The notes beneath the pieces are model-generated. The model saw nothing but the letters and a program-made list of their open reading frames with translations, did no database searches and was not told where the DNA came from. The position numbers were made by a program, and so were the translations under genes. A stretch of DNA of 14,573 nt, taken from the NCBI GenBank assembly GCA_049700215.1, contig JBNAVT010000038.1, positions 1 to 14,573 on the forward strand, in the 5' to 3' direction. This DNA comes from Thermoproteota archaeon. GTDB taxonomy: Archaea > Thermoproteota > EX4484-205 > JAAOZP01. Below are positions 3 through 14,573 of the stretch, piece by piece (positions within the stretch are counted from its first letter, which is position 1; each line of letters starts with the position of its first letter).

Positions 3-311
3 CTAGTGATAGATGGTGGTTGCAGGGATGTGGCTGAAATAAGGAGGGAAAGGTTCCCTGTTTTCTGCAGGGGAGTAGGCCGCACTGAGACTGTGGGGAG
101 GCTTATCCTGAGGCCTGAGGACGTTAACATACCTGTCACCGTCGGAGACGTGCCTGTGGAGCCCGGGGACTTCGTGATGGGCGACGATGACGGAGTGGTG
201 GTTATCCCTAGGGAGCTGGCTGAAGCGGTCTCGGAGAGAGCGCTGCGACAGTTTCAGGAGGACCGTGCCAACCAGAAGCCTTATTTGGAGAAGCTCGGCA
301 TAAGGCTTTAG
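3..311 (+). CDS. RraA family / HMG-CHA aldolase-like protein, 5'-partial
   Basis: Frame is open from the window edge (CTA GTG ATA GAT GGT...). Contains LVIDGGCRD, FPVFCRG and V.PGDFVMGDDDGVVVIP, the typical C-terminal half of the RraA-like fold. TAG stop at 309-311. Confidence 0.9.
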   Translation, partial: LVIDGGCRDVAEIRRERFPVFCRGVGRTETVGRLILRPEDVNIPVTVGDVPVEPGDFVMGDDDGVVVIPRELAEAVSERALRQFQEDRANQKPYLEKLGIRL

Positions 312-316
312 GAGGT
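311..316 (+). promoter_or_regulatory. Shine-Dalgarno site for the PPC/DUF296 gene
   Basis: GGAGGT overlaps the upstream TAG stop and lies 6 nt before ATG at 323. Confidence 0.7.
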
Positions 317-322
317 TTGAAG

Positions 323-751
323 ATGGACTCTTGGAGAGCGGGATTAGGAAGAATTATCGTTTTGAGAGGGGATCGTGGCGAGGATCTTTTAGAAACCATT
401 GAAACCACCGCTCGGGGCAACCGGATTGCAAACGGCGTCATAATCTCGGCAATAGGTACTCTTGAAAAATGTCGCATTCATAGGGTTACTTCCAAGAAGC
501 TTCCGCCTGAGGTGGAGTATGTTGACATAGATGGTCCTTTAGAAATAAACTCGGTAAGTGGCGTAATAGCGAACGGTAGGCTTCATGCGCATATTTCTGT
601 TTCAAATGGTAAGGGTACTTACGGGGGGCACTTAGAGCCGGGAAGCCGAATACTTTATCTTGCGGAAATAGTGGTGGCAGAGATTACTGGAGTCTCGTTC
701 AACCGGGTTCCAGACATGGCGACGGGTCTGAGTCTTCTAAGGGCTGTCTAG
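323..751 (+). CDS. PPC domain (DUF296, AF0104-like) putative metal-binding protein
   Basis: Motifs R...GEDLLE, SAIGTL, EINSVSG, HAHISVS, GGHL..G and AEIVV match PPC/DUF296. ATG at 323 is preferred to the track's TTG at 317 because of SD spacing. Confidence 0.88.
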   Translation: MDSWRAGLGRIIVLRGDRGEDLLETIETTARGNRIANGVIISAIGTLEKCRIHRVTSKKLPPEVEYVDIDGPLEINSVSGVIANGRLHAHISVSNGKGTYGGHLEPGSRILYLAEIVVAEITGVSFNRVPDMATGLSLLRAV

Positions 752-780
752 GTTAAAGGCTTCAATCCTGTTTGCCCGTT

Positions 781-793
781 AAAAATTCTTAAA
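781..793 (+). promoter_or_regulatory. Putative BRE/TATA promoter for cutA (leaderless-type spacing)
   Basis: AAAAATTCTTAAA ends about 22 nt upstream of ATG 815; no SD is visible. Confidence 0.4.
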
Positions 794-814
794 GGGCTCT
801 GGCTGATTAGCTTC

Positions 815-1138
815 ATGGACAGGTATATTCAGGTTTTAACAACAACTGGGAAAAGGGAGGACGCTGAGAAGATTGCAAGGATACTGTTGGAAAGGAGACT
901 GGCAGGATGTGTTCAAGTAGTAGGCCCAATATCCAGTCTATACTGGTGGAAAGGAAGAATCGAGAAAGCAGAAGAATGGTTATGCTTAATCAAGAGCAGA
1001 GAAGACTTGTATGAAGAACTTGAGAAAACTATCAGAGAGAATCATCTATATGAGGTTCCGGAGATTATTGCGATGCCGATAATTTCTGGAAGCAGAAGCT
1101 ACCTGGAATGGATGGGTACGGTGCTTAAAAGGCAATAA
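815..1138 (+). CDS. cutA: Divalent-cation tolerance protein CutA
   Basis: 107 aa with RLAGCVQ, SLYWWKGRIE..EE, IKS and H.YEVPEII...I..G...YLEW, the CutA signature pattern. Confidence 0.95.
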   Translation: MDRYIQVLTTTGKREDAEKIARILLERRLAGCVQVVGPISSLYWWKGRIEKAEEWLCLIKSREDLYEELEKTIRENHLYEVPEIIAMPIISGSRSYLEWMGTVLKRQ

Positions 1139-1548: not shown

Positions 1549-2463
1549 CTAAACTCGATGATTATTCAAATGGTTGTTTGAAGAAGCATCCTCCTGAATA
1601 CTGCGGCCAAGTTTCTCCATCGTCTCTAGTATTTCGTCGTCAAGCCGTTTATGTCTCCGGCTCCTGTGTCTACCGGCTACATAAGGGCCTATTGATTCGA
1701 AAGCTGTTTTAGCCAGCTCATCTCCCTCTCCTTCTGAAAAGCGCCTCCAGGACTCGGGAAAGTGAACATAATCCTCCGGGTTCGTCCAGCTTATGTCAAA
1801 CTCCTCCAGTTTCTCAGGGGGGACGCATACCGCTACACGGTCTAGAATCCTGTGCAGGGATAAGGGTGTCGTGAAAACCCTCTGAATGTCTATCCGGTTC
1901 TCGACAACGAGCCCCTCTGTAGGCTCCAGCCTGTTGGCGATGAAACAGGTTACTGAGTATGCTATGTCAATCGGCTCTATTCTTCTCCTAATATCAGTGC
2001 TGAAGCAGAAAGGGTTGACGTGGACGTGAGTACCCCGGCCGCTCCACTTGATGAAGACGGATTTAGCCACCCCCAGCTTATCCAGCAGGCTTACTATTTC
2101 CCGGGCTTTGCCAATCACTTTCCTCCAGTCCCCATCCTTAGAATCTATGTCCCACACAGGAGATGAATAAACTATGTTACTCCTATCCAGAATGTCCTCC
2201 CTAGTTTTAAGCTTGGAATATATGTGGGCTGTGGCATAGAAGGCTCTCGGCCTGTACTGCTTGTAGCGGTCGATTAACAGTGCTACTTCTGAATCGGAGC
2301 CTATGGTTAACGGTCTTCCTTTTTCATACCTGATCATCATGCGCATACCTTTTTCTCCAATTGTTTCGCAGTGGATGGCGATCCAACGCCCCTTGCAATA
2401 ATCAGCCAGTTCTCTTCTCACTTCAGGCTTCCCATAGTGTTCTAACGGAACCCGGAGGCTCAT
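1549..2463 (-). CDS. Archaeo-eukaryotic primase (AEP) superfamily protein, stand-alone, not canonical PriS
   Basis: AEP motif I PVWDIDS (DxD), motif II KWSGRGTHVH (SG.G.H) and motif III NRIDIQRVFTTPLSLH. Its ATG overlaps the KaiC-like stop (ATGA, 2463-2460). Confidence 0.8.
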   Translation of the reverse strand: MSLRVPLEHYGKPEVRRELADYCKGRWIAIHCETIGEKGMRMMIRYEKGRPLTIGSDSEVALLIDRYKQYRPRAFYATAHIYSKLKTREDILDRSNIVYSSPVWDIDSKDGDWRKVIGKAREIVSLLDKLGVAKSVFIKWSGRGTHVHVNPFCFSTDIRRRIEPIDIAYSVTCFIANRLEPTEGLVVENRIDIQRVFTTPLSLHRILDRVAVCVPPEKLEEFDISWTNPEDYVHFPESWRRFSEGEGDELAKTAFESIGPYVAGRHRSRRHKRLDDEILETMEKLGRSIQEDASSNNHLNNHRV

Positions 2464-3254
2464 AGTTCCTTCTCAGCCTCTTTTCTTGCCCCAACTATTT
2501 TCCTCATGACTTCAGAGGGAAGCTTATAGTCTTCAACCCTTCTCTCAACCCTACCCAGAACCACCAGCCCTACGCCGGGTTTAATATCGATCTCATGGAG
2601 ATACCTGCTGTGGTCTGTCTGCCTCATCTTCTCGATGACGATGAATCTTTTCAACTCTCCGCCTCTCAAAAGCCTCCTGAACCTTATTATCCCGTCTGCT
2701 ATGTGTTCTACGCCGAAGCCGAAGCTCTCAGCAGTGGTTATCGCATACTGGCTCACGGCAAGTATCGTGAAGCTCCACTTGGAGAGAACCTTCTTAACAT
2801 AGTAGCTGTACCTCCTAGCCATTGCAGGCTTGTCCAGCCAGAATGCTGAAAGACTGTCGATGACGATCCTAGCCCTACCGTATCCAAGCTCCTTCTTAGC
2901 CTCTATTATCTTAGATACGAGGGCTTCCATGTCTAGGCTCTGCAGGCTCCACTTGTCTGTTCTACCCATTAAGGCATCGATTATTATCACCTTGCCTTCT
3001 TCAATCCTCTTCTGGAAATCCATTTTAAACTGTGATGCCTGCCTAACTATAGACTCCCTACTCTCCTCAGTTGTGACATAGATGCACTTGTCTCCCTCTT
3101 CAACACCCTTGTTAATGAAATGTATGGCGAGTATTGTTTTTCCGCATCCGGGTTCTCCGGTTACGGCGACGAAGAACCCCTCCGGTATTCCGCCTTGAAG
3201 CAGGGAGTCTAGCCCCTCAACCCCGGTGCTAAGCCTCTTAACCTCCAGCGTCAT
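2460..3254 (-). CDS. KaiC domain-containing ATPase (single-domain archaeal RecA/RAD55 superfamily; resembles the PAE1156-type family)
   Basis: RLSTGVEGLD..LQGGIP, Walker A GEPGCGKT, TTEES, Walker B IVIDS, SAFWLDKPAMAR, EHIADGIIRF, EKMRQT. ATG at 3254 (MTLEVKRLSTG) is preferred over GTG 3293 because the family normally begins just before RLSTG. Confidence 0.92.
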   Translation of the reverse strand: MTLEVKRLSTGVEGLDSLLQGGIPEGFFVAVTGEPGCGKTILAIHFINKGVEEGDKCIYVTTEESRESIVRQASQFKMDFQKRIEEGKVIIIDALMGRTDKWSLQSLDMEALVSKIIEAKKELGYGRARIVIDSLSAFWLDKPAMARRYSYYVKKVLSKWSFTILAVSQYAITTAESFGFGVEHIADGIIRFRRLLRGGELKRFIVIEKMRQTDHSRYLHEIDIKPGVGLVVLGRVERRVEDYKLPSEVMRKIVGARKEAEKEL

Positions 3255-3328
3255 AATACTATTTGTTTGGTTAGTGGCATAAGAACTTATCACTCTACTG
3301 CCAGCGGCCTCCCCATTTTAAAGTATCT

Positions 3329-6046
3329 TTAACCGGTTTCAGATCGGGCTATCTCATACCAGATAGTCTGGAAATCAGGCCCGATTGAAAAAACTTTATA
3401 CTGTCCCTCGTTAGAAACCTGCACCTGCTTAATCCTTCTTCCTATGCCGTCTAATGCCCATACTTCTATCTCCCTGCCTGTTTTAATCCTTAGCGTCGCC
3501 CCAACCCCTTCTACTAGCGTTGGAGCCGAACCCCAGTTCGTGCCGCAGGTTATAGGCTCCATGGCTGTTTTCACGCCAGCTAAATCGTTTAGTCTCCACG
3601 TTAACAATGCCGTGTTCTCCTCATACGTGCGGAGCCTCATCCCGGTGTTAGTAACGTAGCCAGCAGCTATTAGCAGAAGCCTGCTCCAGGAATCGAGGCT
3701 TTCTCCCTCCAGCACCGAGACCGTTACGACGCTCCAGCCTTCTAGAAGCGTTTCACCCGGCTCGATGACGAGTGCTCCAAAGTCTAGGCTCCTCCCCCCG
3801 GTGAAGCCTACGGCAGCTATGCTTCTCGAAGTATTGATTGTTAGGACTCCTCTCCCGGAATCAGACACGTCCCAAGCGACCTCCCCGGTGTCGGAGCGGT
3901 AGACACGCCCGGAAACACTGAAACCAGCCTTGGGAGAAGCTTCCTCATCGAGGCTGACGGCTGTTCTATGCGTGAGGGAGACCAATGGGTTTAAACCCAT
4001 GTGGCTAGCGTCCGGCAGCGCCCAAGCGTAGACCCTTCCCGCCGATATCAGGTTTATCTCGTCCTTTCTGCCGAGTCCCACGGAAACAAGCTGTTCAGCA
4101 GGCTTAACGTCGCCTCTCAAGAATATCATGTGCGCGGCTATCATGGTCGCCATTTTAACGGGGTGCTGGTCAATATCGAAGAACCCCCTTATCCTCCTAG
4201 AGTCCCAGTCGCCGCGGCTTCCGTAGTTGAACAGGAAGATTCCATCCCAGTCTTGCAGTGCAGCGTACGCGGCTAGCGTTATGACTGTTTCAGAATCATA
4301 CATGTTTGGAGCAGGATGATTGTATTCGGTGACGAAGTGAGGCTTGTTCACAACCCTTTTAACAGCCAAGCCTACTATCGTGCTCTGCTGGGGATTGTTA
4401 ACCATCGGCTCGTTAACCACGTACCAGTTGCTAGGGTCCCAAGGGGTTCCCGGGAAGGAAGGATGGTTCCAGTAGGCATGCGTGTCTACAACGTCAAGCT
4501 TAGACATTATGTTCGGAGTGCTGCACCCGACTACGGTGCCTATCACTAGGGCTTTCACAGCGAGCTCATCTTTAACGAATCTACGCATCTCCGTGAAAAA
4601 CTCTTCCTCCGTGCTGTACAGGAATTCAACCCAGTCTCTCCTTGCTGCACTCGTCCTTAAGCCGTATTCGGCGAGCCTCAGTATCCTAACGTTTGCCTTT
4701 TCAACACTCTCATCCTCCATCGGTCCGTACCCGCTGAAAAGCCTCATTGAGAAGCAGGAGAAAAGGTAGTTTGCTATGCTCCCACCGAGCCCTGAGACAT
4801 CTAGCCTAGCATTGTCCTCCGACTCCGACGCAACCAGAGCGATCTCGTACTCCTTCCACTCTGTTGTCAGCGATACTTCAACCCTTTGCGAAACTAGTCT
4901 CCATGGCTCGTGCGCCTGAACTAGGCTTACGCTTACGCTAACCGTTTTATCAGCCTTAGCCCTAAACCTGACAAGATAGTTTTCACCCTCCCTGATTCTT
5001 AAACCCGGCTGGTTGAACTGCACATGCCAGCTTTCTGAGCCGAGCCTCGTAACCTTTATTTCCAGAATCCTTCCTCCATTTTCCTCAATCACTCTTCCGG
5101 ATGCTTGCGCACCGTCGTGAACCTCAACCACCCAGCCGTCTAAACCGTTTTCGAAACAGCCGTTTCTGAGAACCTCGGCCTGAGCCCCTGGGCCTGTTTC
5201 AACGCCCCATGCTTCTCTAAACTCCTTGTCAGACAAGTATTTTGAACCCAAATAGGCGTTCCATTTCTCCTGAAGCCTGTTTTTAAAGACGTTTGGAAGC
5301 CTGTCAACCACGCCGCCAAGCCAAGAATGGATAAGCCCCTGCTCGTTCACTATTTCAACGAAGGCCACTGCAGGGTCCTCGGCGTAAGTCATTCCAGTAT
5401 AGGTGTTTAAATGGGTTAAGAGTTGCCTAGCATACTCTTTCTCAAGCTCTTCAAACTCGTCGATGAAAAACCCGAGGGCCTGCTGGTCCTTCCAGTCTAC
5501 TGTCTCCACTTCTCTAGGTAAGCCGTCTGCGGAAGTAAACCTTCTCGATACGAGCAGGTTCAGGTCAACGTATATGCCGTTCTCCTTAAGCTTTGAAATA
5601 AAGTAGTCAAGCCTGTCGAGCGCATCCTTGTTTAGGCGGCGTGTACCCCCAGTGGTCTTGTCAAATATGTTGAAAGCCTCCCAGCTCGCATCCATATGGT
5701 GGAAACGTACCACGTTGACCCCGAATTTAGCGAGCCTGCCGGCTATCCTCCCAGCTTCATCCTTCTCTGGAAAGCATGCTCCTCCACAAATGTTGACTCC
5801 TAGAAACTTCACTCTTCCACCGTTAACATATAGGTGGCCATCCTCCCCAACATAAACGTGTCCAAGGCTACCTGCCGGCTTGTGAAGCCTACTGCTCATG
5901 CTTATCACAGTCTGCTCACCGTCATTCCATGGGAGATGGAAGGGGAACACTCGTTCCTCAAGCGTTACAGGTTTAAATATGCTTTGGAGTAAGGCTAGGG
6001 AGGCAATCAAGCCTACTGTCAACAGGATTAAAAATGTTTTCCTCAT
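3329..6046 (-). CDS. Exported/membrane-anchored clan GH-A glycoside hydrolase with inserted CBM4-like module (GH148/EngU-like beta-glucanase architecture)
   Basis: N-terminal MRK + hydrophobic helix. Motifs FLGVNI, GVNVVRFHHMD, GIYVDLNL, YAEDPAVAFVEIVNE (acid/base Glu, about 5343), DTHAYWNHP, FVTEYNHP (nucleophile Glu, about 4326) and AALQDWDG. A CBM4_9-like insert LRNGCFENGLDGW...WHVQFNQ...VRFRAKA...LTTEWKEY lies at about 4740-5176. Confidence 0.85.
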   Translation of the reverse strand: MRKTFLILLTVGLIASLALLQSIFKPVTLEERVFPFHLPWNDGEQTVISMSSRLHKPAGSLGHVYVGEDGHLYVNGGRVKFLGVNICGGACFPEKDEAGRIAGRLAKFGVNVVRFHHMDASWEAFNIFDKTTGGTRRLNKDALDRLDYFISKLKENGIYVDLNLLVSRRFTSADGLPREVETVDWKDQQALGFFIDEFEELEKEYARQLLTHLNTYTGMTYAEDPAVAFVEIVNEQGLIHSWLGGVVDRLPNVFKNRLQEKWNAYLGSKYLSDKEFREAWGVETGPGAQAEVLRNGCFENGLDGWVVEVHDGAQASGRVIEENGGRILEIKVTRLGSESWHVQFNQPGLRIREGENYLVRFRAKADKTVSVSVSLVQAHEPWRLVSQRVEVSLTTEWKEYEIALVASESEDNARLDVSGLGGSIANYLFSCFSMRLFSGYGPMEDESVEKANVRILRLAEYGLRTSAARRDWVEFLYSTEEEFFTEMRRFVKDELAVKALVIGTVVGCSTPNIMSKLDVVDTHAYWNHPSFPGTPWDPSNWYVVNEPMVNNPQQSTIVGLAVKRVVNKPHFVTEYNHPAPNMYDSETVITLAAYAALQDWDGIFLFNYGSRGDWDSRRIRGFFDIDQHPVKMATMIAAHMIFLRGDVKPAEQLVSVGLGRKDEINLISAGRVYAWALPDASHMGLNPLVSLTHRTAVSLDEEASPKAGFSVSGRVYRSDTGEVAWDVSDSGRGVLTINTSRSIAAVGFTGGRSLDFGALVIEPGETLLEGWSVVTVSVLEGESLDSWSRLLLIAAGYVTNTGMRLRTYEENTALLTWRLNDLAGVKTAMEPITCGTNWGSAPTLVEGVGATLRIKTGREIEVWALDGIGRRIKQVQVSNEGQYKVFSIGPDFQTIWYEIARSETG

Positions 6047-6167: not shown

Positions 6168-8105
6168 CTACCAGGGCCATATCCATGAGGCTCTTGAAAC
6201 CAGGGTGATCGTGGTTCCCATTGCTACGACAATACCTATGCCCGCTGCGAACCCTGCCAGGACTATGCCTCTTATTGACAACCATTTTTCCGGCCCGAGT
6301 ATACGCGTCATCAAATACTTGCTTACAAGGGACATTAAGAACAACATTACCGTGTAGGGCGGTGTGCTGTACATTCCACCAACTAGCCCAACCGGGTTGA
6401 ACGGTACTCCCAGCCTGTTTAACGGGATTGAGACGAGGCTGACGCCGACAGATATGCCCATTCCCATCAGAATCTGGTCCGGCTTTATGAGTATCTGCCG
6501 GGTTGCAAACAGCGAGTCGCTGATGGCGTAGTTCGGCCAAATACCGTACACGTATGGGAATAAGTAGGAGGGTATTGGAGCTATTCTCCAGAAGAAGTCT
6601 GTAAATATGAGGCCGAACGTTGTTACCAGTATGAAGGATATTATGACTGCCTTAAAATAGTCCATGGGTCTCGTCCCCGTTGCATACGCCACCTTGGTGG
6701 AGTTCGCGAAGTATGGTGTGGAGAAGCCAGCTATGGCTGGTGTGAAAATCCATCCGGCGTAGCCGTTGTAGGGGCTGAAGTATATGGCTGCCTTCCACAT
6801 GTTGTATATGAAGTCGGAGGAGAAGGTCAGCCCCAGTTCACCGTAAATCCTGGCGCCGACAGACGCTAAAACGAAGCTGAACCCTACTGAAACCAGTATG
6901 GGGAGCCACAATGGAACATCCGGGAGGAGAATGTTGTAGAGCAGCGCGCTCAGAACTGTGGAGCAGAAGAATGTGGCGAGCAGTATCTTTGGCGAAGGAT
7001 ATCCCGGCCCACCCTTCAGCCTGCTTATTTTCGGGAGTGTTTTAAAAGCTGCCACGATCTTCTTGCTTGTCGCGGCTAAAAGATATATCGCCAGGCCGAA
7101 GGATAGACCCATGAACAGGGAAAGCCAGAGTCTTAAGCCTGCTCTCTGAAGTATCAGGAATATTCCCATGCCTGGTGAATACTCCTCGACCCACTGGGGA
7201 GAGAAGCTTTTGAAGGTTGTTAGAGTAAGAGTGTTTCCCAAGATCCATGTGATTACTGATCCCACTAGCATAGCGAAAGTTAGCGAGGGAGGCAGGATCA
7301 TGCCGTAGAGGAAGCTCAACGGGTCTGTTGCTATGCCTATTACTGCCCCCGGCAGGAAGAACTGCGTATAGGGTGTTAAGTCAACCCAAGGGTATGGGAT
7401 TAAACGCGCCTGGGGGCCGATGAGCATAGGCACCAGGTAAAGTATTAAACCGTATATGGCTCCCATCGTTAAAGACAGGATGAAGTAGAGTAGGTCCTGA
7501 GGCTTCCTGTCGTGCAGAGTGTTCACCATGGCTGTGTCGATCTGTGCGAATGGGAATGGCAGAGGCTCCTCCACCACGTACAGGTAGGAGAACAGTATGC
7601 CTATGGATAGTTCCGCCGCCAAGCCTAGGATTGAGAAGGCAAGGTTTACGCCTAGGGCGAAAAACCAGTCTGGGTGCAACAGGGTTCTCAACTGGTGGAC
7701 GACTGACGTTGCTGGGGGAGACATCCATGTGGGAACGTATTCCCTTAACGGGGTGTTGAAAAGCGTGAACTCTAGGCTTAAGGGATTAGTAACGTAGTAA
7801 GACCTGTAGACAAGCCAGTAGTACATGGGCATGGCTCCGCCTATCCCCCCCACGATAGAATATATTATGAAAAGCTCCTGTCTTGAAAGCCTCCTGCCGT
7901 AGATCTGTGTTAAAGCTGTGAAAAGTATTGCCGTCACGTAGGTTGCAGCTGTGCTCACTCCGGATCCTACTGCAAACCATAGGTATATTGAGGAGGGCAG
8001 GAAGATTAATGCAGCCATTATCATTGCTAAGATGCTTCTCCAAGTCAATCCTGGTGAAAATTCCTGCGAGGCTTGCGTCAGGGACCCTTCACCTCGATTT
8101 TTCAC
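6168..8105 (-). CDS. OPT/YSL-superfamily-like polytopic membrane transporter
   Basis: About 645 aa, highly hydrophobic with many TM segments. Contains GLTWRS at the N-terminus, LSRQE, EEPLPFP.A, ARIYGELG, WRIAPIPS..FPY and a terminal G...G.G helix. The true start may be CTG at 8081 (see findings). Confidence 0.8.
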   Translation of the reverse strand: MKNRGEGSLTQASQEFSPGLTWRSILAMIMAALIFLPSSIYLWFAVGSGVSTAATYVTAILFTALTQIYGRRLSRQELFIIYSIVGGIGGAMPMYYWLVYRSYYVTNPLSLEFTLFNTPLREYVPTWMSPPATSVVHQLRTLLHPDWFFALGVNLAFSILGLAAELSIGILFSYLYVVEEPLPFPFAQIDTAMVNTLHDRKPQDLLYFILSLTMGAIYGLILYLVPMLIGPQARLIPYPWVDLTPYTQFFLPGAVIGIATDPLSFLYGMILPPSLTFAMLVGSVITWILGNTLTLTTFKSFSPQWVEEYSPGMGIFLILQRAGLRLWLSLFMGLSFGLAIYLLAATSKKIVAAFKTLPKISRLKGGPGYPSPKILLATFFCSTVLSALLYNILLPDVPLWLPILVSVGFSFVLASVGARIYGELGLTFSSDFIYNMWKAAIYFSPYNGYAGWIFTPAIAGFSTPYFANSTKVAYATGTRPMDYFKAVIISFILVTTFGLIFTDFFWRIAPIPSYLFPYVYGIWPNYAISDSLFATRQILIKPDQILMGMGISVGVSLVSIPLNRLGVPFNPVGLVGGMYSTPPYTVMLFLMSLVSKYLMTRILGPEKWLSIRGIVLAGFAAGIGIVVAMGTTITLVSRASWIWPW

Positions 8106-8116
8106 TGTGATACTCC

Positions 8117-8133
8117 AATATAAAAATTTTTAA
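8117..8133 (-). promoter_or_regulatory. BRE/TATA promoter for the OPT-like gene
   Basis: Minus strand TTAAAAATTTTTATATT; includes the perfect palindrome TAAAAATTTTTA (8121-8132). Confidence 0.6.
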
Positions 8134-8141
8134 TTCCTGCT

Positions 8142-8154
8142 AAAAACTTATAAG
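8142..8154 (+). promoter_or_regulatory. BRE/TATA promoter for the 1517-aa gene
   Basis: AAAAACTTATAAG ends 29 nt upstream of ATG 8183. Confidence 0.6.
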
Positions 8155-8182
8155 CCAGCATGCTTCCGTTTTCACAAAAGAC

Positions 8183-11100
8183 ATGGCTAGCAGAATTAAG
8201 ATCATGTCGATATTTCTTCTCTCCCTATCCGTCCTCTTAATATCGTCTGCACAGGTTCCAGCGCTCTCTGGGCAGCAGTATTCCACGTCTTTAAAGCCTG
8301 ATTTGAATCCTACTTTAAACGGCCCTGTTTCAGCTGACGAAGAACTGTTTCCGATAGACACGGCTTGGATGAGCCGGTTTGTAACAGAAGTGTCTTCCTA
8401 TGGCTCTAGGATGACTGGTTACCAGGGCTACTACAAGACACTGGAATATCTTTACACTTATCTTAAGAATGATCTGGGGATAACGACCCAGAAACACAAG
8501 TATAAGGTACTGGTGCCCTACGACGAGGAGACCTATGTCGAGGCTTTAGAGCCTTTTAAAGCCAGGTTTAACGCTTACGCGCTCTATCCTAACGGTGTCA
8601 ACCCTTGCCCAACCCCCTCCGGTGGGATAGTTGGAAGCCTGATTTACGCTGGGGGAGGCGACTTGCAGGAGTTAGACGGGAGGAATGTGGAGGGGAGCAT
8701 AGTTGCTATGGAGTTTAATTCCCGGGACAACTGGCTTAAGGTGGTTAACCTTGGAGCCGAGGCAATCATATTCATAGAGCCGGAGCAGACAACCTATCAG
8801 GAGTGCTACGCTAAATTCCTAGACACCCCCATGGGTTTCACGAGGGTCTACGTTAAGAAGCAGGATTGGGATGTTTTGAAAGCCGCCACCCGGGTTAAGA
8901 TCGTTTCCCGAATGGCTTGGAGGGAGGTTGAGGCGGAGAACATAGTTGGTTTTGTAAATGGCACGGCTGTGCCTAACGAGGTCGTCATACTGTCTGCGCA
9001 TTTCGACTCGTGGTCTGTTGTCCCCGGCTTGGCGGCGAGCAAGACTGAGCTGCTACCCTTAGCTCTATTGCTCGAGTATGCCCGTCACCTCAAGGCCAAC
9101 CCGCCTAGGTATTCAGTATGGATAACGCTTTACTCCGGACACTGGCAGGCGCTAAGCGGCTCGAGAGAGTTTGTCGAGGACTATTTTTTCAGGGAGGATG
9201 TGGGCAGTGGGAAGATAACGATTCTCGGAAACATAAACTTCGACCTTATGGCGAGCGACTCCGACGGCCTGCAGCTTCTTCACGCAAGCCAGTACTCAAC
9301 CTACGGCGGGACCTCTATACATAGCGGCGGCTTCCCGCTTAGGCTCTCCTGGTTTAGCACAACGATAGGGAGCATGGTTGACACGCCTGAAGTCAGAGGC
9401 TTCGCGAGGAGGATGCCGAACATTAACGTTTCAGCCCCATCAAGCGCATTCATCTCCTCGCTTGTAAGCATCTTCTTCCAGTACAACGGTTTTTCAGGCA
9501 CGGAGCCCATCCCGTTTATGCTGGATTCGGAGCCTGCTTCGATCGCGGGCATACCTGCGTTCTCCATAACAACCAGGCGTTCAAACAGGATTTACGTGGG
9601 CTCTCCCATAGATGATTCGAACTACGCTGACGTATACGTTTTAGACCCGTACTTCCAACTCATCCTCCATATTGTTGACAGCCTTCTACGGATGGAGTGG
9701 AGTATCGATAGGGCCTCGATCAAGCCGACAAGGTTTCTGCTTTCAAACACGAGAGCATACCCGGGGTATGCTGCTCTTCAGGGCCGAGTTGTTATCTATA
9801 ACTATAGTAAAGGATGGTACGACGGGGTTCCCGGCGCTCTGGTTGAAGTGAGACTGGTTACTTCAACCTACAAGCTTAACAGGATAGTTATGAAAAGCGG
9901 TGAGGACGGGTCTTTCACTGTTCACGGAGTGCCTATTTCCGGCGCAGCCGGGGGAGGGGGGACTGCAGTAATATTCTCGAGATGGATAGCCAGGGGATGG
10001 GTGTTCAACGACGAGGGCATTATCACGATGGCTACTGACCTAGGGCAGTTCGGCATGATGAACTTCCCGCTTGAGATAACTGTCCTACACGCTTACGAGA
10101 ATGTTACTGTAGTTATTGCTAAAGCGGTTTCCGTGGAGGTGTTGGACTTCGAAATCCCAACCGTCATAATGACGCCCAGCATAATTGATCCTAGGGCCGG
10201 CGCATTCGAAATGTGGAGGAGCCCGCCTCAACCGGTTACAGTGTTCTCATTCGAGACGCTTACTAAGAGTCCGCCGATAAGCTACGGCTACTATTCCAAC
10301 GGCTGGGAGCCTGTTTCAATAGTGTGGGTTCAGCCGGGGATAAGGTTCGTAGTCGCCAGCCCGACTGGGATACTTTTAACGAATTCTTCGCTTGAAAACA
10401 CGGAGGGAAGCGGTTTATACGTGGAATATGGGGAGAGGGAAAGGATCCGTTTCTCTACTTTCAGTACTGCTAAAGACCTTTACTATGTTTCATACGGCCG
10501 GTATCTTGAGCTGGTTAAGAGAAACATGGGGAGCCCGAGCGCGGATGAAACCCTGAATAAGGCTAGGAAATACATAGAGGAGGTTGAGAAGCGTTTAGCT
10601 AAGAGGGAGTATAGCGGCATGTATGCTTATGCTCTTCTGGCTAGGGCCTACGCAATTAGAGCGTACTCTGTGGAAGTCATGCCTTTGATAAACGATTCGG
10701 CGAAGTCTCTTCTCTACATGTTTATCCTCGTCATATTCGGCGCCTTCTTCCTTGAGAAGCTTGTCATCCGGGCACGCGGCTCTAGGCGCATTATTGCTAT
10801 AGCTATTCTGGCAGCAATATTCCTAGCGTTGTTCAGCGTTCTGCACCCGGCATTCGGGTTGATGAGCAATATATCCCTAGGCATGATGGGCTCGCTAATA
10901 CTGATCGTCATCATCATAGTGTTCATAATAATACTTTCGATAAGCGAGGAGGTTAGGAAAGGCATCGAGAAACGTGTCCTCGGTGTTCACAGGGCTGAAG
11001 TAAGCAGGCTCGACACGGCGATGATCTCCTTCTCTCTAGGGAGTGAGCATATGCGCCGCAGGCCTTTCCGCGCAATACTGGTTTTCATAACGTTGATCAC

Positions 11101-12736
11101 TATGGTTGTAGCAATGACTTCCTTCACCTCGCTGATGCCTGGGAGGGTAACAGTGCCGGTAACCAGGTATGGGTATGAGTGTAACTCCTACAGGGATGAG
11201 ATCCTCATAAAGCAGGGGAGAGGTGTTCCCCCGAACATTCTTTCAGACAAGGTTCTAGACATCACGAAAATATTTGCTACAGACAAATACTATGTTTTCC
11301 CGAGAGTATGGATTTACGGCCCAGTGGATAGGGCTGCATGGACCACCTCCTTCAGGGTGTGGAGTGCAACCAACACTTCGAGAGTTCCTGCAATAATGGG
11401 GATGACTGTGGAGGAGTTCAACCGGATCGTGAGGGGCACCTGCATCGTGAGGGGTGGGCTGCTTTCCGACGACGCTGATCAGGCGGTCATATCTAGGTCG
11501 CTGGCAACCAACTTGAGCGTAACAATAGGGGACACTATTTACGTTTCAGGCATCCGGTTCACGGTGACTGGAATAATTGATTCAAACGAGGTTGATTTCC
11601 TGCAGGAGGCTGATGGATACAATATTTTCCCGGCTAACCCGAGTTTCTTCCCGACTATAAGCAGGGACATGGCTGTCTCTGCTCAAGCCGGCTCTTCTCC
11701 TCCAAACCTCGGTGTCTCAACAACAATGATAATACCTTACAAGAGGGCGCTGATGATCGGGGGATACATTTCTTCAATAGCCTTAGTGCCGAAGGAAAAA
11801 CTGTCCTTCGAAGAGATATTCAGCCTAGCTAAGGAGCTGGCCTACTCCCTAGACTTGTCAATATACGTTTCCCACGAGGGGAAGCCGTATCTGCTTTCAA
11901 CCTTCACCACGGTTTTGCTCGGAGGGTGGGAAATAATATGGATGATAGTTATCCTGGGGGCGCTCAACATATTTACCACGGTGCTGGGCAGCCTTAGGGA
12001 GCGTGTTAGGGAAGTCCACGTTTTCAGCATCGTCGGCCTATCCCCCATGGGTGTAACCGTTTTCTTCATGACGGAGGTTCTGGTCTATGCTATAATAAGC
12101 GCTTTAGTAGGGTATATTGCTGGATACTTCATGACGAGGGTCTTCATGCTTCTCGGAATACTGCCCTCTGAACACGTTTTCAACTTCGCCTCAGCATTCG
12201 CAATATTAGGAACCCTGGTGACGATGGCGTCAGCCCTAGCAGCAGCCGCATACCCTTCCTACATAGCTTCGAAAGTGGCCACGCCCTCGCTTGAGAGAAG
12301 ATGGAAGTTTAAGACTAAGCCTAAGGGGAACGAGTGGGACATTCCCCTGCTCATAAGCGTTTCGACAATCGAGGAGGGAAGAGGGCTTTTAGCATATTTA
12401 CACGAGTATTTCGCGGGTGCGGGGGCCGTGAAAGAGGGTGTTCACATGGTTAAGGAGCTGCAGCCTCCGAACTACGAGGACCTATCGTTAAGCTTGACAG
12501 TCAGCCTCTCGCCGTTCGAAGTAGGTGTTTCTCAAAGAGTTGATATTGCTGCAAGGCTGAACGAGGAGGTGAAAAGATACGATGTTATGCTCCACCTGGA
12601 GAGGCTTACGGGGCCGCAGAGCACATGGGTAACTTCAAACTACAGGTTCGTAAACGAGTTGAGGAAACAGCTAATAATGTGGGGGTCCTTCTCAGCGGCT
12701 GAGAAAGCAAGCTACATATCTATGGCAAAAGCGTAG
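8183..12736 (+). CDS. Large multidomain membrane protein: signal peptide, M28-peptidase-like fold with PA insert, beta-sandwich, TM bundle, MacB/FtsX-like permease
   Basis: Signal peptide; SRMTGYQG; PA-like GSLIYAGGG...VEGSIVAM...GAEAIIFIE; NIVG...VILSAHFDS; NFDL; carboxypeptidase-regulatory-like GRVV...VPGALVEV...SGEDGSFTVHGVP. Three TMs (about 10710-10940), RRPFRAILVFITL TM, MacB-like AVISRSLATNLSVTIGDTI...FTVTGII, and FtsX-like SLRERVREV.VFSIVGLSP..V...FMTE...GYIAG...AAAYPSYIASKV.P. Confidence 0.88.
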   Translation: MASRIKIMSIFLLSLSVLLISSAQVPALSGQQYSTSLKPDLNPTLNGPVSADEELFPIDTAWMSRFVTEVSSYGSRMTGYQGYYKTLEYLYTYLKNDLGITTQKHKYKVLVPYDEETYVEALEPFKARFNAYALYPNGVNPCPTPSGGIVGSLIYAGGGDLQELDGRNVEGSIVAMEFNSRDNWLKVVNLGAEAIIFIEPEQTTYQECYAKFLDTPMGFTRVYVKKQDWDVLKAATRVKIVSRMAWREVEAENIVGFVNGTAVPNEVVILSAHFDSWSVVPGLAASKTELLPLALLLEYARHLKANPPRYSVWITLYSGHWQALSGSREFVEDYFFREDVGSGKITILGNINFDLMASDSDGLQLLHASQYSTYGGTSIHSGGFPLRLSWFSTTIGSMVDTPEVRGFARRMPNINVSAPSSAFISSLVSIFFQYNGFSGTEPIPFMLDSEPASIAGIPAFSITTRRSNRIYVGSPIDDSNYADVYVLDPYFQLILHIVDSLLRMEWSIDRASIKPTRFLLSNTRAYPGYAALQGRVVIYNYSKGWYDGVPGALVEVRLVTSTYKLNRIVMKSGEDGSFTVHGVPISGAAGGGGTAVIFSRWIARGWVFNDEGIITMATDLGQFGMMNFPLEITVLHAYENVTVVIAKAVSVEVLDFEIPTVIMTPSIIDPRAGAFEMWRSPPQPVTVFSFETLTKSPPISYGYYSNGWEPVSIVWVQPGIRFVVASPTGILLTNSSLENTEGSGLYVEYGERERIRFSTFSTAKDLYYVSYGRYLELVKRNMGSPSADETLNKARKYIEEVEKRLAKREYSGMYAYALLARAYAIRAYSVEVMPLINDSAKSLLYMFILVIFGAFFLEKLVIRARGSRRIIAIAILAAIFLALFSVLHPAFGLMSNISLGMMGSLILIVIIIVFIIILSISEEVRKGIEKRVLGVHRAEVSRLDTAMISFSLGSEHMRRRPFRAILVFITLITMVVAMTSFTSLMPGRVTVPVTRYGYECNSYRDEILIKQGRGVPPNILSDKVLDITKIFATDKYYVFPRVWIYGPVDRAAWTTSFRVWSATNTSRVPAIMGMTVEEFNRIVRGTCIVRGGLLSDDADQAVISRSLATNLSVTIGDTIYVSGIRFTVTGIIDSNEVDFLQEADGYNIFPANPSFFPTISRDMAVSAQAGSSPPNLGVSTTMIIPYKRALMIGGYISSIALVPKEKLSFEEIFSLAKELAYSLDLSIYVSHEGKPYLLSTFTTVLLGGWEIIWMIVILGALNIFTTVLGSLRERVREVHVFSIVGLSPMGVTVFFMTEVLVYAIISALVGYIAGYFMTRVFMLLGILPSEHVFNFASAFAILGTLVTMASALAAAAYPSYIASKVATPSLERRWKFKTKPKGNEWDIPLLISVSTIEEGRGLLAYLHEYFAGAGAVKEGVHMVKELQPPNYEDLSLSLTVSLSPFEVGVSQRVDIAARLNEEVKRYDVMLHLERLTGPQSTWVTSNYRFVNELRKQLIMWGSFSAAEKASYISMAKA

Positions 12737-13379
12737 TGTAAGTATACTCCTCTATTTTCTTAAGCAGGCTAATAACGGTGAGGAATGCTCTCTGAACCAC
12801 TCCTGCAGACTGGAGACCATACAGCATGTGCATCCTCACGATCCAAGCTATGGATTGAGGCACCTCCACGTATTTTTTAACCAGGCTGCTGGTCATCAGC
12901 CCTCTGTCTGAAGTCATCAAGTATGTTTCGAACAGTTCAACCGGTATGATGGATGGGAAGATTTCTATTAAGTCGCCTCCCCCCTTCCTAACCAGTTCCT
13001 CAACATCCCTGCTCCTGACTATTCGCATAATACCCTCCTCCTCAGGCATGTTTATCCCGGTTAGTGATGAGAGTCCACTCCACCTGCTTGCCTTCACGCT
13101 TCTCCTTAAAACCCCTTTCAACTCCAGTTCCACAGACTCTGAAAGCATCCTTCTTAAAAGCTGGCGCTTATCGTGTTTTTCAAGCCTTTTCTCAGGTATT
13201 TCAAGCACACCGGTCATTTCGAACTTCCTTTCGAAGCTGAACTGCATCCTTCTCACGAGGATAATCAGCCTTATTTGCGGGTTTTCAATAGGCTTTACAA
13301 CGAGGTTTCCCCTCCCTGTTTCCTCGAAAGACACTTCATACTTTTCAAGCGCCTTCTCCACGCTCTGAACCCAGGACAT
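12720..13379 (-). CDS. Hypothetical soluble protein (219 aa)
   Basis: ATG start, E/K/R-rich composition like neighbouring genes, TATA-like TTTATTTG about 26 nt upstream (13412-13405); fills the gap between two confident genes. No motif recognised. Confidence 0.75.
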   Translation of the reverse strand: MSWVQSVEKALEKYEVSFEETGRGNLVVKPIENPQIRLIILVRRMQFSFERKFEMTGVLEIPEKRLEKHDKRQLLRRMLSESVELELKGVLRRSVKASRWSGLSSLTGINMPEEEGIMRIVRSRDVEELVRKGGGDLIEIFPSIIPVELFETYLMTSDRGLMTSSLVKKYVEVPQSIAWIVRMHMLYGLQSAGVVQRAFLTVISLLKKIEEYTYTTLLP

Positions 13380-13505
13380 TACCCTTACGCCTGCGAATTT
13401 TCACCAAATAAATCTAACTTGGGAAGTGAAAGGGGTTGCATAGCCATCCGTGGGTTTTTACACCCATTTTAAAGTCTTGATGCTATGAAACGGATGTTTA
13501 CATGC

Positions 13506-13549
13506 GTAAAGTTTAAATTTTGCAAATGTATAACATAAACGAAGGTGAA
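13506..13549 (+). promoter_or_regulatory. BRE/TATA promoter and SD for the second OPT-like gene
   Basis: GTAAAG-TTTAAATT (13506-13519), then AGGTGA (13543-13548) 7 nt before ATG 13556. Confidence 0.65.
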
Positions 13550-13555
13550 AACATT

Positions 13556-14573
13556 ATGGCTACGGAAGTAGAGCTTAGAACAGGTTTAACGGCAAAATCA
13601 CTCGCCGTCTCCATCCCTCTGGCAATATTTTTCGCCTACATGTCGGTTGTGGTAGGCCTTTACACTGACAAGACGTCCACATTCGGTACTTTCATCCTAC
13701 CTATGGTGTACTTAGTTGTGATATTCGAACTCCTGGGGAGAGCCAACCCTAAGATGAGGCTGACGCCCCAGGAGTTGGTTTTCGTATTCTCAGTCATCTC
13801 GTTCCTAGGGATGCACTCCTACCTAACGATGCATGCTGCAGCCCACAACAATCCTTTAAGCATGCCCGTGTACGGTGCTCTCAGCGACTACGAAGCTTTC
13901 TCGATAGACAGTTTGAGGGACTACTGGAGCAGGGCTGTCCCCGCCGTAATAATTGCTCCTGAGCCGATACGCTTCGAGATCGCCACGATGCTGATGAACG
14001 GTAAGGCTCCTGGGCAAGCTGTTCCATGGGGTTACATAATGAACGCAATAATATACTGGGGCCTCGTCTACATGTTCTACGCCTTCATAAGCATATTCGT
14101 CACGTTCGTCTTCGGCAAGGTCTGGGTCGAGGAGGAGAGGCTGATCTTCCCGCTGGCTGTTCCGTCTCTTTACCTGTTCAGGGAAGCGGGTGAGGTGGAT
14201 CCCACTACCAACAAGTCTAGGCTCTTCAACTTCAAGGTTCCAACATCAAAGATTTTCTGGGGCATGTTCGTAATAGGCATGATAAGCGGAATACAGCCCT
14301 TGATAGCTGAGCTCTGGCCGGAGTTCCCAGCGTCCGCATGGTGGGGCGAGCAGAATGTGAACCTGCCTTTCCTCGCCGCGCTCTGGCCAGGAATATATGC
14401 TTCAGCAATATTCTTCATACCTCAGATAGCCGTGGGGCTGGTCATGCCTAACGACGCTCTGATAACACTGATACTCGGCTGGATCATCTTCGGCGTGCTC
14501 TACCAGGGCATAGGCGTGAGCATGGGTATTGTCGCATACCAGGCTGGAATGGAGTACGTCTGGCCTTGGGAAC
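13556..14573 (+). CDS. Second OPT-superfamily-like (DUF6785-like) polytopic membrane protein, 3'-partial; absent from the ORF track
   Basis: Manual translation is open for 339 codons to the window edge: MATEVELRTGLTAKSLAVSIPLAIFF...RLTPQELVFVFS...VPWG...WVEEERLIFPLAVP...KIFWGMFVIG...LGWIIFGVLYQ. Has an SD and TATA. Motifs are collinear with the 6168-8105 protein. Confidence 0.88.
   Translation, partial: MATEVELRTGLTAKSLAVSIPLAIFFAYMSVVVGLYTDKTSTFGTFILPMVYLVVIFELLGRANPKMRLTPQELVFVFSVISFLGMHSYLTMHAAAHNNPLSMPVYGALSDYEAFSIDSLRDYWSRAVPAVIIAPEPIRFEIATMLMNGKAPGQAVPWGYIMNAIIYWGLVYMFYAFISIFVTFVFGKVWVEEERLIFPLAVPSLYLFREAGEVDPTTNKSRLFNFKVPTSKIFWGMFVIGMISGIQPLIAELWPEFPASAWWGEQNVNLPFLAALWPGIYASAIFFIPQIAVGLVMPNDALITLILGWIIFGVLYQGIGVSMGIVAYQAGMEYVWPWE

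Follow-up and report, generated by a model that had tools for sequence, protein, structure and literature searches.

A conserved gene module encoding an M28/PA-MacB-like giant protein and two OPT-related permeases in Thermoproteota, a candidate three-component uptake system

Introduction

The closest described relatives of the system reported here belong to several groups of envelope proteins. Type VII ATP-binding cassette (ABC) systems, such as MacB, LolCDE, FtsEX, YbbAP, HrtBA and BceAB, have in common a four-helix FtsX core with a periplasmic core domain. Members of the OPT/YSL family (PF03169, TC 2.A.67) are many-helix permeases that normally work alone, and their established substrates are peptides. 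M28 and PA domains occur together in the 2ek8 aminopeptidase, YwaD, the transferrin receptor, GCPII and Nicalin, with loss of the catalytic residues in the transferrin receptor and Nicalin. TRAP and TTT systems are binding-protein-dependent secondary transporters in which an extracytoplasmic capture component feeds a secondary permease, and in Sus-like polysaccharide utilisation loci outer depolymerases are combined with inner exo-glycosidases. Here we describe a 14,573-bp stretch of DNA from a Thermoproteota archaeon (contig JBNAVT010000038.1 of assembly GCA_049700215.1, our contig C38; the whole contig is hereafter termed the window), on which a giant protein, B, is encoded together with two OPT-like membrane proteins, A and C. 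On comparative evidence, the interpretation of A, B and C as one multi-component system is strongly supported. The features of the locus are as follows.

6168-8105, minus strand: C, polytopic membrane protein of 645 amino acids (open reading frame, ORF)
8106-8182: intergenic region between the divergent C and B genes, 77 bp, AT-rich (sequence)
8183-12736, plus strand: B, 1517 amino acids (ORF)
12720-13379, minus strand: gene for a soluble protein of 219 amino acids (ORF)
13520-14572, plus strand: A, N-terminal 351 amino acids, open at the 3' end (ORF)

A reading of the sequence without database searches (the sequence-only reading) had described four clustered genes in two divergent pairs, and all four ORFs are where it placed them: C pairs with B and the 219-residue protein gene pairs with A, while B and the 219-residue protein gene are convergent and overlap by 17 bp. 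The promoters of C and B presumably both lie in the 77-bp gap, and A is truncated because the window is an entire contig. Comparison with six relatives that are 90-98% identical indicates purifying selection on C (pN/pS 0.04-0.10), on B (0.10-0.13) and on the 219-residue protein gene (0.23-0.29).

Each component can be set against a described family. In residues ~964-1365, B shares the FtsX core and periplasmic core domain of type VII ABC systems, but it has neither a fused nor a neighbouring ATPase, it possesses three extra N-terminal helices, an 800-residue head and stalk and a relative-less cytoplasmic domain of 150 residues, and its constant partners are two OPT-like permeases. A and C resemble OPT/YSL proteins in size and many-helix topology, and some relatives of C match the OPT model; they differ in coming as a pair with B and in their sugar-suggestive gene context, and the C protein of the window falls short of the OPT model. 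The head of B aligns with M28+PA proteins across both domains and, as in the transferrin receptor and Nicalin, has lost catalytic residues, whereas it differs in being joined to a stalk and a membrane base of seven helices, and in the conserved His and aromatic residue that replace Glu-Glu in nearly all copies. With TRAP and TTT systems and Sus-like loci the likeness is one of concept only (capture component plus permease, outer depolymerases, inner exo-glycosidases); there is no sequence relationship, and the capture component, B, would itself be polytopic and of MacB type.

We found no description of the A-B-C module in the literature searched, in which the nearest mentions are of single annotated genes. 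No paper was found to mention DUF6785 or DUF6784, the families to which parts of A belong, and searches on archaeal FtsX with M28, on MacB/FtsX with glycoside hydrolase (GH), and on FtsX-like permease with oligopeptide transporter returned nothing relevant. Two papers record a "hypothetical protein homologous to transporters" adjoining a GH3 gene in Thermofilum adornatum (PMC6965361) and one OPT gene in Staphylothermus marinus (PMC2678158). The terms "transporter" and "FtsX" are absent from the available part of a paper on Brockarchaeota (PMC8065059), and the available part of PMC12542729 contains nothing concerning the module.

Conservation of the A-B-C module

The genome (2.09 Mb in 85 contigs, 94.6% complete) carries five diverged A-B-C sets, that of the window included; the other four, on contigs C6, C4, C43 and C3, are co-directional strings and are 27-38% identical to the window set. 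In other genomes of the same phylum, A, B and C were all present at 17 of 20 loci centred on B, in at least six gene orders and in mixed orientations, 12 of the 17 being contiguous and nine lying on one strand. At 35 loci centred on C in named metagenome-assembled genomes (MAGs), a set that partly overlaps the 20 B-centred loci, B flanks C in 32, the three misses having C at a contig edge, and all three genes are found in 27. A single set of 401 genomes of the phylum was used to count each protein: B was detected in 86 at E<=1e-10 and in 70 at E<=1e-40, the cut-off taken for a full B, C was detected in 63, every one of them among the 70 full-B genomes, and A was detected in 67, of which 66 are among the 70.

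The module occurs in archaea of hot springs and in marine bacteria; it was found in Brockarchaeota-labelled MAGs, Thermofilaceae, Bathyarchaeia, Caldarchaeales and marine bacterial contigs, and DUF6785 was present in none of 14 model genomes. On the bacterial contigs a B-A-C string lies on one strand in 6 of 11 cases and is partial in three more, and an ABC permease labelled as Gemmatimonadetes, to which these contigs are related, aligns to B residues 443-1511 (E 3e-60). Both A and C have survived every duplication and persist in every lineage, bacteria included, as would be expected of a hetero-oligomer. In addition, the pairwise distances among 19 modules are correlated (r 0.92 for A/B, 0.88 for B/C and 0.89 for A/C, values reached by 0 of 2000 permutations), with the coefficients inflated by the relatedness of the genomes. 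Such a pattern, maintained across gene orders and domains, would be hard to explain without functional coupling. Clustering and co-occurrence in other genomes had been named in advance by the sequence-only reading as the survey on which it could fail, and it did not fail: the membrane genes cluster and co-occur across genomes and domains. Its proposal of one import or export machine is partly supported: the three membrane genes behave as one conserved unit, and the 219-residue protein falls outside it.

The three B-centred loci without adjacent A and C (L055, L056 and L061) all come from one genus, in which an A/C pair lies elsewhere in the genome, two genes away from a shorter FtsX giant. At these loci a full-length B (1561-1590 residues) is followed by a conserved 339-residue protein with three transmembrane (TM) segments and a conserved 296-residue soluble protein, both family-less, and genes for GFO_IDH_MocA, aldo/keto reductase and FAD-oxidase proteins flank B. 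A second type of B-like protein is encoded on contig C16 (31341-36716; L073:5341-10716, minus strand). This 1792-residue protein is a stalk-less version of the B chassis, in which the MacB core and the same cytoplasmic domain (matching positions 828-1507 of the B hidden Markov model, HMM) carry a GH2-like head in place of M28/PA. At all four loci where it was seen (L073, L128, L129 and L130) it is divergently paired with a polytopic protein of 778-782 residues and a UbiA-like gene, with BacA alongside in this genome. The 339- and 296-residue neighbours and the 778-residue partner were considered as relatives of A or C and ruled out (hhalign probability <=2.4%).

Two further observations concern the bacterial loci. 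The public 1103-residue model of a bacterial B homologue (P0069, L116:2111-6517) seems to begin too late: the open frame extends to 1469-1470 residues, of which the B profile recognises the first 366 as M28/PA head. Upstream of the bacterial B-A-C string, on the same strand (L118, L122 and L124), are genes for proteins of ~1004, ~837 and 347 residues, of which the first has a weak carboxypeptidase-regulatory-like N-terminus, the second has no PDB relative, and the third is PorV-like (6h3i, E 2.1e-8); these genes may represent an outer-membrane part of the system.

Protein B

The 1517 residues of B divide into the following parts, all on the plus strand.

8183-8257, plus strand: residues 1-25, hydrophobic signal or anchor segment (hydropathy peak at 7-25)
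8309-9682, plus strand: residues ~43-500, M28 aminopeptidase-like head with PA insert (Pfam, profile match to 2ek8)
9695-10669, plus strand: residues 505-829, stalk of two beta-sandwich domains and a three-helix bundle (AlphaFold2 model)
10697-10942, plus strand: residues 839-920, three additional TM helices before the MacB-like core (hydropathy, model)
11072-12277, plus strand: residues 964-1365, MacB/LolC/FtsX-type permease core with TM1, periplasmic core domain and TM2-4 (Pfam, profile, Foldseek)
12278-12733, plus strand: residues 1366-1517, conserved cytoplasmic C-terminal domain (alignment, model)

Pfam places Peptidase_M28 at residues 253-365 (2.9e-8), MacB_PCD at 1048-1172 (9e-8) and FtsX at 1251-1364 (6.5e-10). 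The core has the four TM helices of an FtsX protein with the periplasmic core domain between TM1 and TM2, as judged by Pfam, by the PDB profile and by Foldseek: its sequence profile matches MacB (9.8e-15) and also LolE, LolC, LolF and YtrF, and the modelled structure of this region (C-terminal half of B, AlphaFold2 pLDDT 82.0) is closest to MacB 5gko_A (2.5e-12), followed by LolCDE, HrtBA, YbbAP and BceAB. The stalk was modelled with a pLDDT of 83.1 and a pTM of 0.80; it has no match among PDB sequences, and Foldseek returned generic beta-sandwiches alone (pilins, adhesins and the S-layer protein SlaB, TM-score 0.17-0.28).

The head has the fold and sequence of an M28 protein with a PA insert. 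Pfam does not detect the insert, which is covered when the profile is matched to 2ek8, an M28+PA aminopeptidase (E 7.5e-28), and to the PA domains of ZNRF3; the head profile also matches YwaD, the transferrin receptor, GCPII and Nicalin. In a motif alignment the Glu-Glu of the A-E-E-x-G-L-x-G-S motif, which we take to be the general-base (catalytic) Glu and the neighbouring zinc-ligand Glu, is absent from 25 of 25 archaeal B proteins. It is replaced by His-Trp in the window B and by His-Trp, His-Tyr or His-Phe in nearly all of the 25, the exceptions being one Tyr-Tyr, one His-Gly and one His-Thr, and the one bacterial B that was read has His-Phe. The bridging Asp is Thr in the window B and Asp or Glu in many others, and a stand-alone M28 protein of the same genome, included in the alignment as a control, retains all M28 motifs with Glu-Glu among them. 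Since the catalytic pair is missing, the head of B is, on sequence grounds, not a canonical peptidase. The giant M28/PA-FtsX fusion of the sequence-only reading is thus borne out in its domains, with the PA part recognised through the 2ek8 profile, but not as a peptidase of the usual kind.

The cytoplasmic domain of ~150 residues (beta-alpha-beta4-alpha2 in the model) is among the best-conserved regions of B in the alignment. It has no relative among PDB sequences even at E 10 and no usable match in the ESM Atlas. Among 1.84 billion representative proteins it matches 1638 50%-identity clusters, 1350 of them at E<=1e-10 and 705 at E<=1e-30, and it is the signature of the B family.

Proteins A and C

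The N-terminal part of A in the window is DUF6785 (Pfam, E 3.5e-13). The full-length orthologue in locus L047 has 699 residues, so that the window holds about half of a roughly 700-residue DUF6785/DUF6784 protein. Contig C5 opens (positions 2-679) with the final 226 residues of A, 96% identical to residues 474-699 of the L047 protein and with a weak DUF6784 match; contigs C38 and C5 are genomic neighbours, and ~120 codons of A are absent between them. DUF6785 occurs in 7 places of the genome, and the A paralogues end in DUF6784. The two domains make up a single ~700-residue protein of the A family, of which the window contains the DUF6785 part alone.

The C protein of the window has no Pfam match even at E 10 and does not reach the gathering score of the OPT model (PF03169), and a C-family profile found nothing among PDB sequences. 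The OPT model is matched by 5 of 29 relatives of C (best 8.8e-11), and the best C paralogue in the genome scores 23.4 bits (E 7.5e-6), below the cut-off of 25.8. A and C are marginally similar by BLASTP (E 0.010), and their family profiles, built from the genome's own paralogues, align in hhalign with 99.7% probability (E 2.8e-25) over 600 columns. By these comparisons, A and C are distant paralogues, homologous over the full length of C, and because relatives of C match OPT and C aligns with A, both can be placed in an OPT-related superfamily, neither being a PF03169 member. The two OPT-like paralogues of the sequence-only reading are therefore upheld as distant paralogues, one of them DUF6785, but the 645-residue C is not a member of the Pfam OPT family.

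A tree built from 32 proteins of each family separates A from C with 100% support; the two subtrees mirror one another, and a bacterial clade is nested in each. Acidic residues E77 and E180 (C numbering) and an E-x-L-x-F-P motif are common to A and C, which together with the OPT matches speaks for permeases, and R140, D242 and K485 are kept in C alone. The window C has four paralogues in the genome, each adjoining a B. Contig C15 (35256-37394; L072) encodes a full-length paralogue of A, 73% identical to the window A, that stands alone with no B or C alongside, and a canonical stand-alone M28 peptidase lies 5.5 kb from it. NCBIfam models gave no useful match to A, B, C or the 219-residue protein.

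Gene context

121 bp from C, and co-directional with it, is a gene whose product is conserved beside C in loci L047 and L048.

3329-6046, minus strand: GH5-like and CBM4-type protein, 905 amino acids (Pfam CBM_4_9, PDB sequence matches)

This protein matches the carbohydrate-binding module of laminarinase 16A (1.3e-10) and a GH5 mannanase (6.4e-6) among PDB sequences. It has an N-terminal hydrophobic anchor by hydropathy, is secreted or anchored, and is probably the outer enzyme of this locus. After A, on contig C5 as at the orthologous loci, come a membrane-anchored 474-residue protein with a weak GH42 match and a 768-residue GH3 protein without a signal peptide, and the 19.5-kb orthologous locus contains no transporter besides the module. 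Transport genes together with outer depolymerases and inner glycosidases are the layout of a polysaccharide utilisation locus, which is found here and is mixed family-wide. Such a layout, with outer enzymes anchored and inner ones not, argues for import.

Elsewhere the neighbours vary. In this genome, GH20, GFO_IDH_MocA, an isomerase-like gene and DUF4838/GH67N accompany the module on contig C6, BNR_2 that on contig C4, and a xylose-isomerase-like TIM barrel, GH38 and, directly upstream of A, Asparaginase_2 that on contig C3. In other genomes GH57, DUF6259/GHL6, GH2 and TrmB were found, a GHL6/GH42M gene lies between B and C, and in L104 C is followed by cytoplasmic sugar isomerase-type and oxidoreductase genes with gaps of <=40 bp. 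The gene context suggests glycans no less strongly than peptides.

Energy source

No ABC ATPase gene adjoins B at any of the 20 B-centred, 35 C-centred or 11 bacterial loci (66 in total, the sets overlapping) in a search with an HMM derived from the ATPases of this genome, and all 43 ABC_tran matches in the genome lie more than 8 kb from each of the five modules. Thus, the LolD/MacB-type ATPase for which the sequence-only reading had advised a neighbourhood survey does not accompany the module, and B has no cognate ABC ATPase fused to it or encoded alongside. Three small FtsX genes in the same genome do have an adjoining ATPase.

Interpretation and alternatives

The reading that we favour, to which we give about an even chance, is that A, B and C take up oligosaccharides or glycoconjugates by means of the proton gradient, B serving as a surface capture scaffold; here we infer the contact among the proteins, the direction, the substrate and the energy source. 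The three proteins would be parts of one conserved three-component envelope system for uptake of oligomeric nutrients, with paralogous modules specialised on different substrates, the substrate of the window module likely being a beta-linked oligosaccharide. Release of the oligosaccharide outside the cell would fall to two proteins, the GH5-like/CBM4 protein, which is secreted, and the GH42-like protein, which is anchored; inside, the GH3 enzyme would finish its breakdown. B, which is probably dimeric like MacB and M28/PA proteins, would capture the substrate by means of a non-catalytic head raised on the stalk above the membrane, and its MacB-like base and cytoplasmic domain would hold it against A and C. 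These ancient duplicates within the OPT superfamily would, as a heteromer, move the substrate inward by the proton gradient, in which case an ATPase would not be needed. A complex prediction of C with B residues 1235-1517 gave a score of 0.00, was run with no controls and weighs neither way.

If the three proteins form one machine, its architecture is not that of a textbook transporter, in that an ABC-exporter-type scaffold with no ATPase gene alongside would be joined to two secondary permeases. The module is common, with up to five copies in a 2-Mb genome and the signature domain in 1350 clusters at E<=1e-10. Uptake by the module would supply the missing step in archaeal polysaccharide-degrading loci that have no ordinary sugar transporter, would require re-annotation of the B giants, which are now counted as extracellular M28 peptidases or as ABC permeases for antimicrobial peptides, and would give DUF6785 and DUF6784 a role. 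A bolder version, which we regard as doubtful, is that two proton-driven permeases of the OPT superfamily have taken the place of the ATPase as partners of a MacB-type mechanotransmission scaffold, with the cytoplasmic domain of B at the docking site of the nucleotide-binding domain. The result would be a new class of three-component importer (capture head, stalk and heteromeric secondary permease) that serves as the main oligosaccharide or glycoconjugate route for many heterotrophic archaea not yet cultured and for some marine bacteria.

Several observations weigh against the uptake reading. The OPT homology of A and C is remote, and OPT proteins carry peptides and metal chelates but are not known to carry sugars. 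Some modules have unrelated neighbours (P-type ATPase, reverse gyrase, HypF), some have peptide-type neighbours (MR_MLE and M20 after A in L051), and a pooled Pfam tally of 112 neighbour proteins, taken over the best 25 of 155 families, is mixed. Full B proteins have other neighbours in the one genus described above, and the GH2-headed chassis never adjoins A or C (four of four loci), so that B-type proteins are able to stand without adjacent A and C. A MacB-partner-like ATPase on contig C1 has no FtsX neighbour. Finally, 21 B proteins conserve an E-R-x-R-E-(I/V) stretch after TM2 that may correspond to the coupling helix at which MacB docks its ATPase, and an ATPase acting in trans and encoded elsewhere is therefore possible.

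The last two points lead to an alternative that we consider unlikely, in which B is a type VII ABC mechanotransmitter driven by an ATPase encoded elsewhere and exports, extracts or assembles surface enzymes, lipid-linked glycans or S-layer parts, with A and C as conduit or flippase. The MacB-type core is complete by sequence and by fold, and the orphan ATPase and the conserved stretch would provide the driving partner and its docking site. The association of the GH2-headed chassis with BacA, UbiA and the 778-residue polytopic protein suggests work on lipid-linked glycans, and the PorV-like outer-membrane gene upstream in bacterial loci would also fit. However, no ATPase gene adjoins B at any locus surveyed, five diverged copies with variable catabolic neighbours in a small genome fit nutrient specialisation better than housekeeping export, and cytoplasmic glycosidases and sugar-converting enzymes lie within the same gene strings.

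We give a similarly low probability to the possibility that the three proteins are co-regulated and physically independent, such that A and C are stand-alone secondary permeases and B, a binding protein or enzyme displayed at the surface and belonging to the same regulon, uses its MacB-like part merely as a membrane anchor. The solitary habit of OPT proteins, the occurrence of B-type chassis proteins apart from A and C, and the shuffled and often divergent gene order would all be accommodated. Yet C was never found without B in the 401 genomes, A and C have stayed together in each duplication as well as in bacteria, the divergence of the three proteins is tightly linked, and the cytoplasmic domain of B, needless for a mere anchor, is among its most conserved parts.

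Least probable of all is peptide or glycopeptide uptake, in which the M28/PA head would trim or hold peptide ends through an altered active site and A and C would import the products as OPT proteins do: the peptide substrates of OPT, the binding of peptide termini by the M28/PA heads of GCPII and aminopeptidases, the His conserved at the position of the catalytic Glu, which suggests a preserved pocket, and the neighbours on contig C3 (Asparaginase_2, with GH38 near) and in L051 speak for it, but both the general-base and the zinc-ligand Glu are missing in all 25 archaeal B proteins and in the one bacterial B that was read, and glycanases, not peptidases, flank the window locus.

The 219-residue protein and other genes

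The sequence-only reading had counted the small soluble protein as a component. It is indeed soluble, with no TM segment by hydropathy, and conserved; it has no family above cut-off in Pfam or NCBIfam, and the sole lead in the ESM Atlas is to DUF3156-type clusters (0.93). Its gene was found only beside orthologues of the window B, always convergent at the B 3' end, with identities of 89% in L047, 51% in L048 and 31% in L049/L050. Because it is confined to this orthologue group, we treat it as a lineage-specific accessory or bystander, not a core part of the module.

Scans of the window for tRNA, Rfam families and tandem and dispersed repeats returned nothing notable. Contig C5 (2270-4026; L074) carries on its minus strand a pair of adjoining ORFs, 248 and 332 residues long, that match AFOR_C and AFOR_N+AFOR_C and look like a split aldehyde:ferredoxin oxidoreductase gene; the pair sits between the 474-residue protein gene and GH3, where the 95%-identical locus L047 has nothing. 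On contig C3 (7777-9801; L071:1777-3801, minus strand) a 674-residue ornithine cyclodeaminase/mu-crystallin protein matches its family in two stretches around LAGLIDADG_3, and its gene is probably intein-bearing.

The window begins with three small housekeeping-type genes (3-1138, plus strand), namely an RraA-like end, a PCC-domain protein and CutA1, which have no relation to the module. At 1549-3293, on the minus strand, a gene for a KaiC-type ATPase (277 residues, E 2.6e-57) overlaps by 4 bp with that of a family-less 304-residue protein, and this pair comes after the 905-residue protein gene both in the window and in the relatives L047 and L081-L085.

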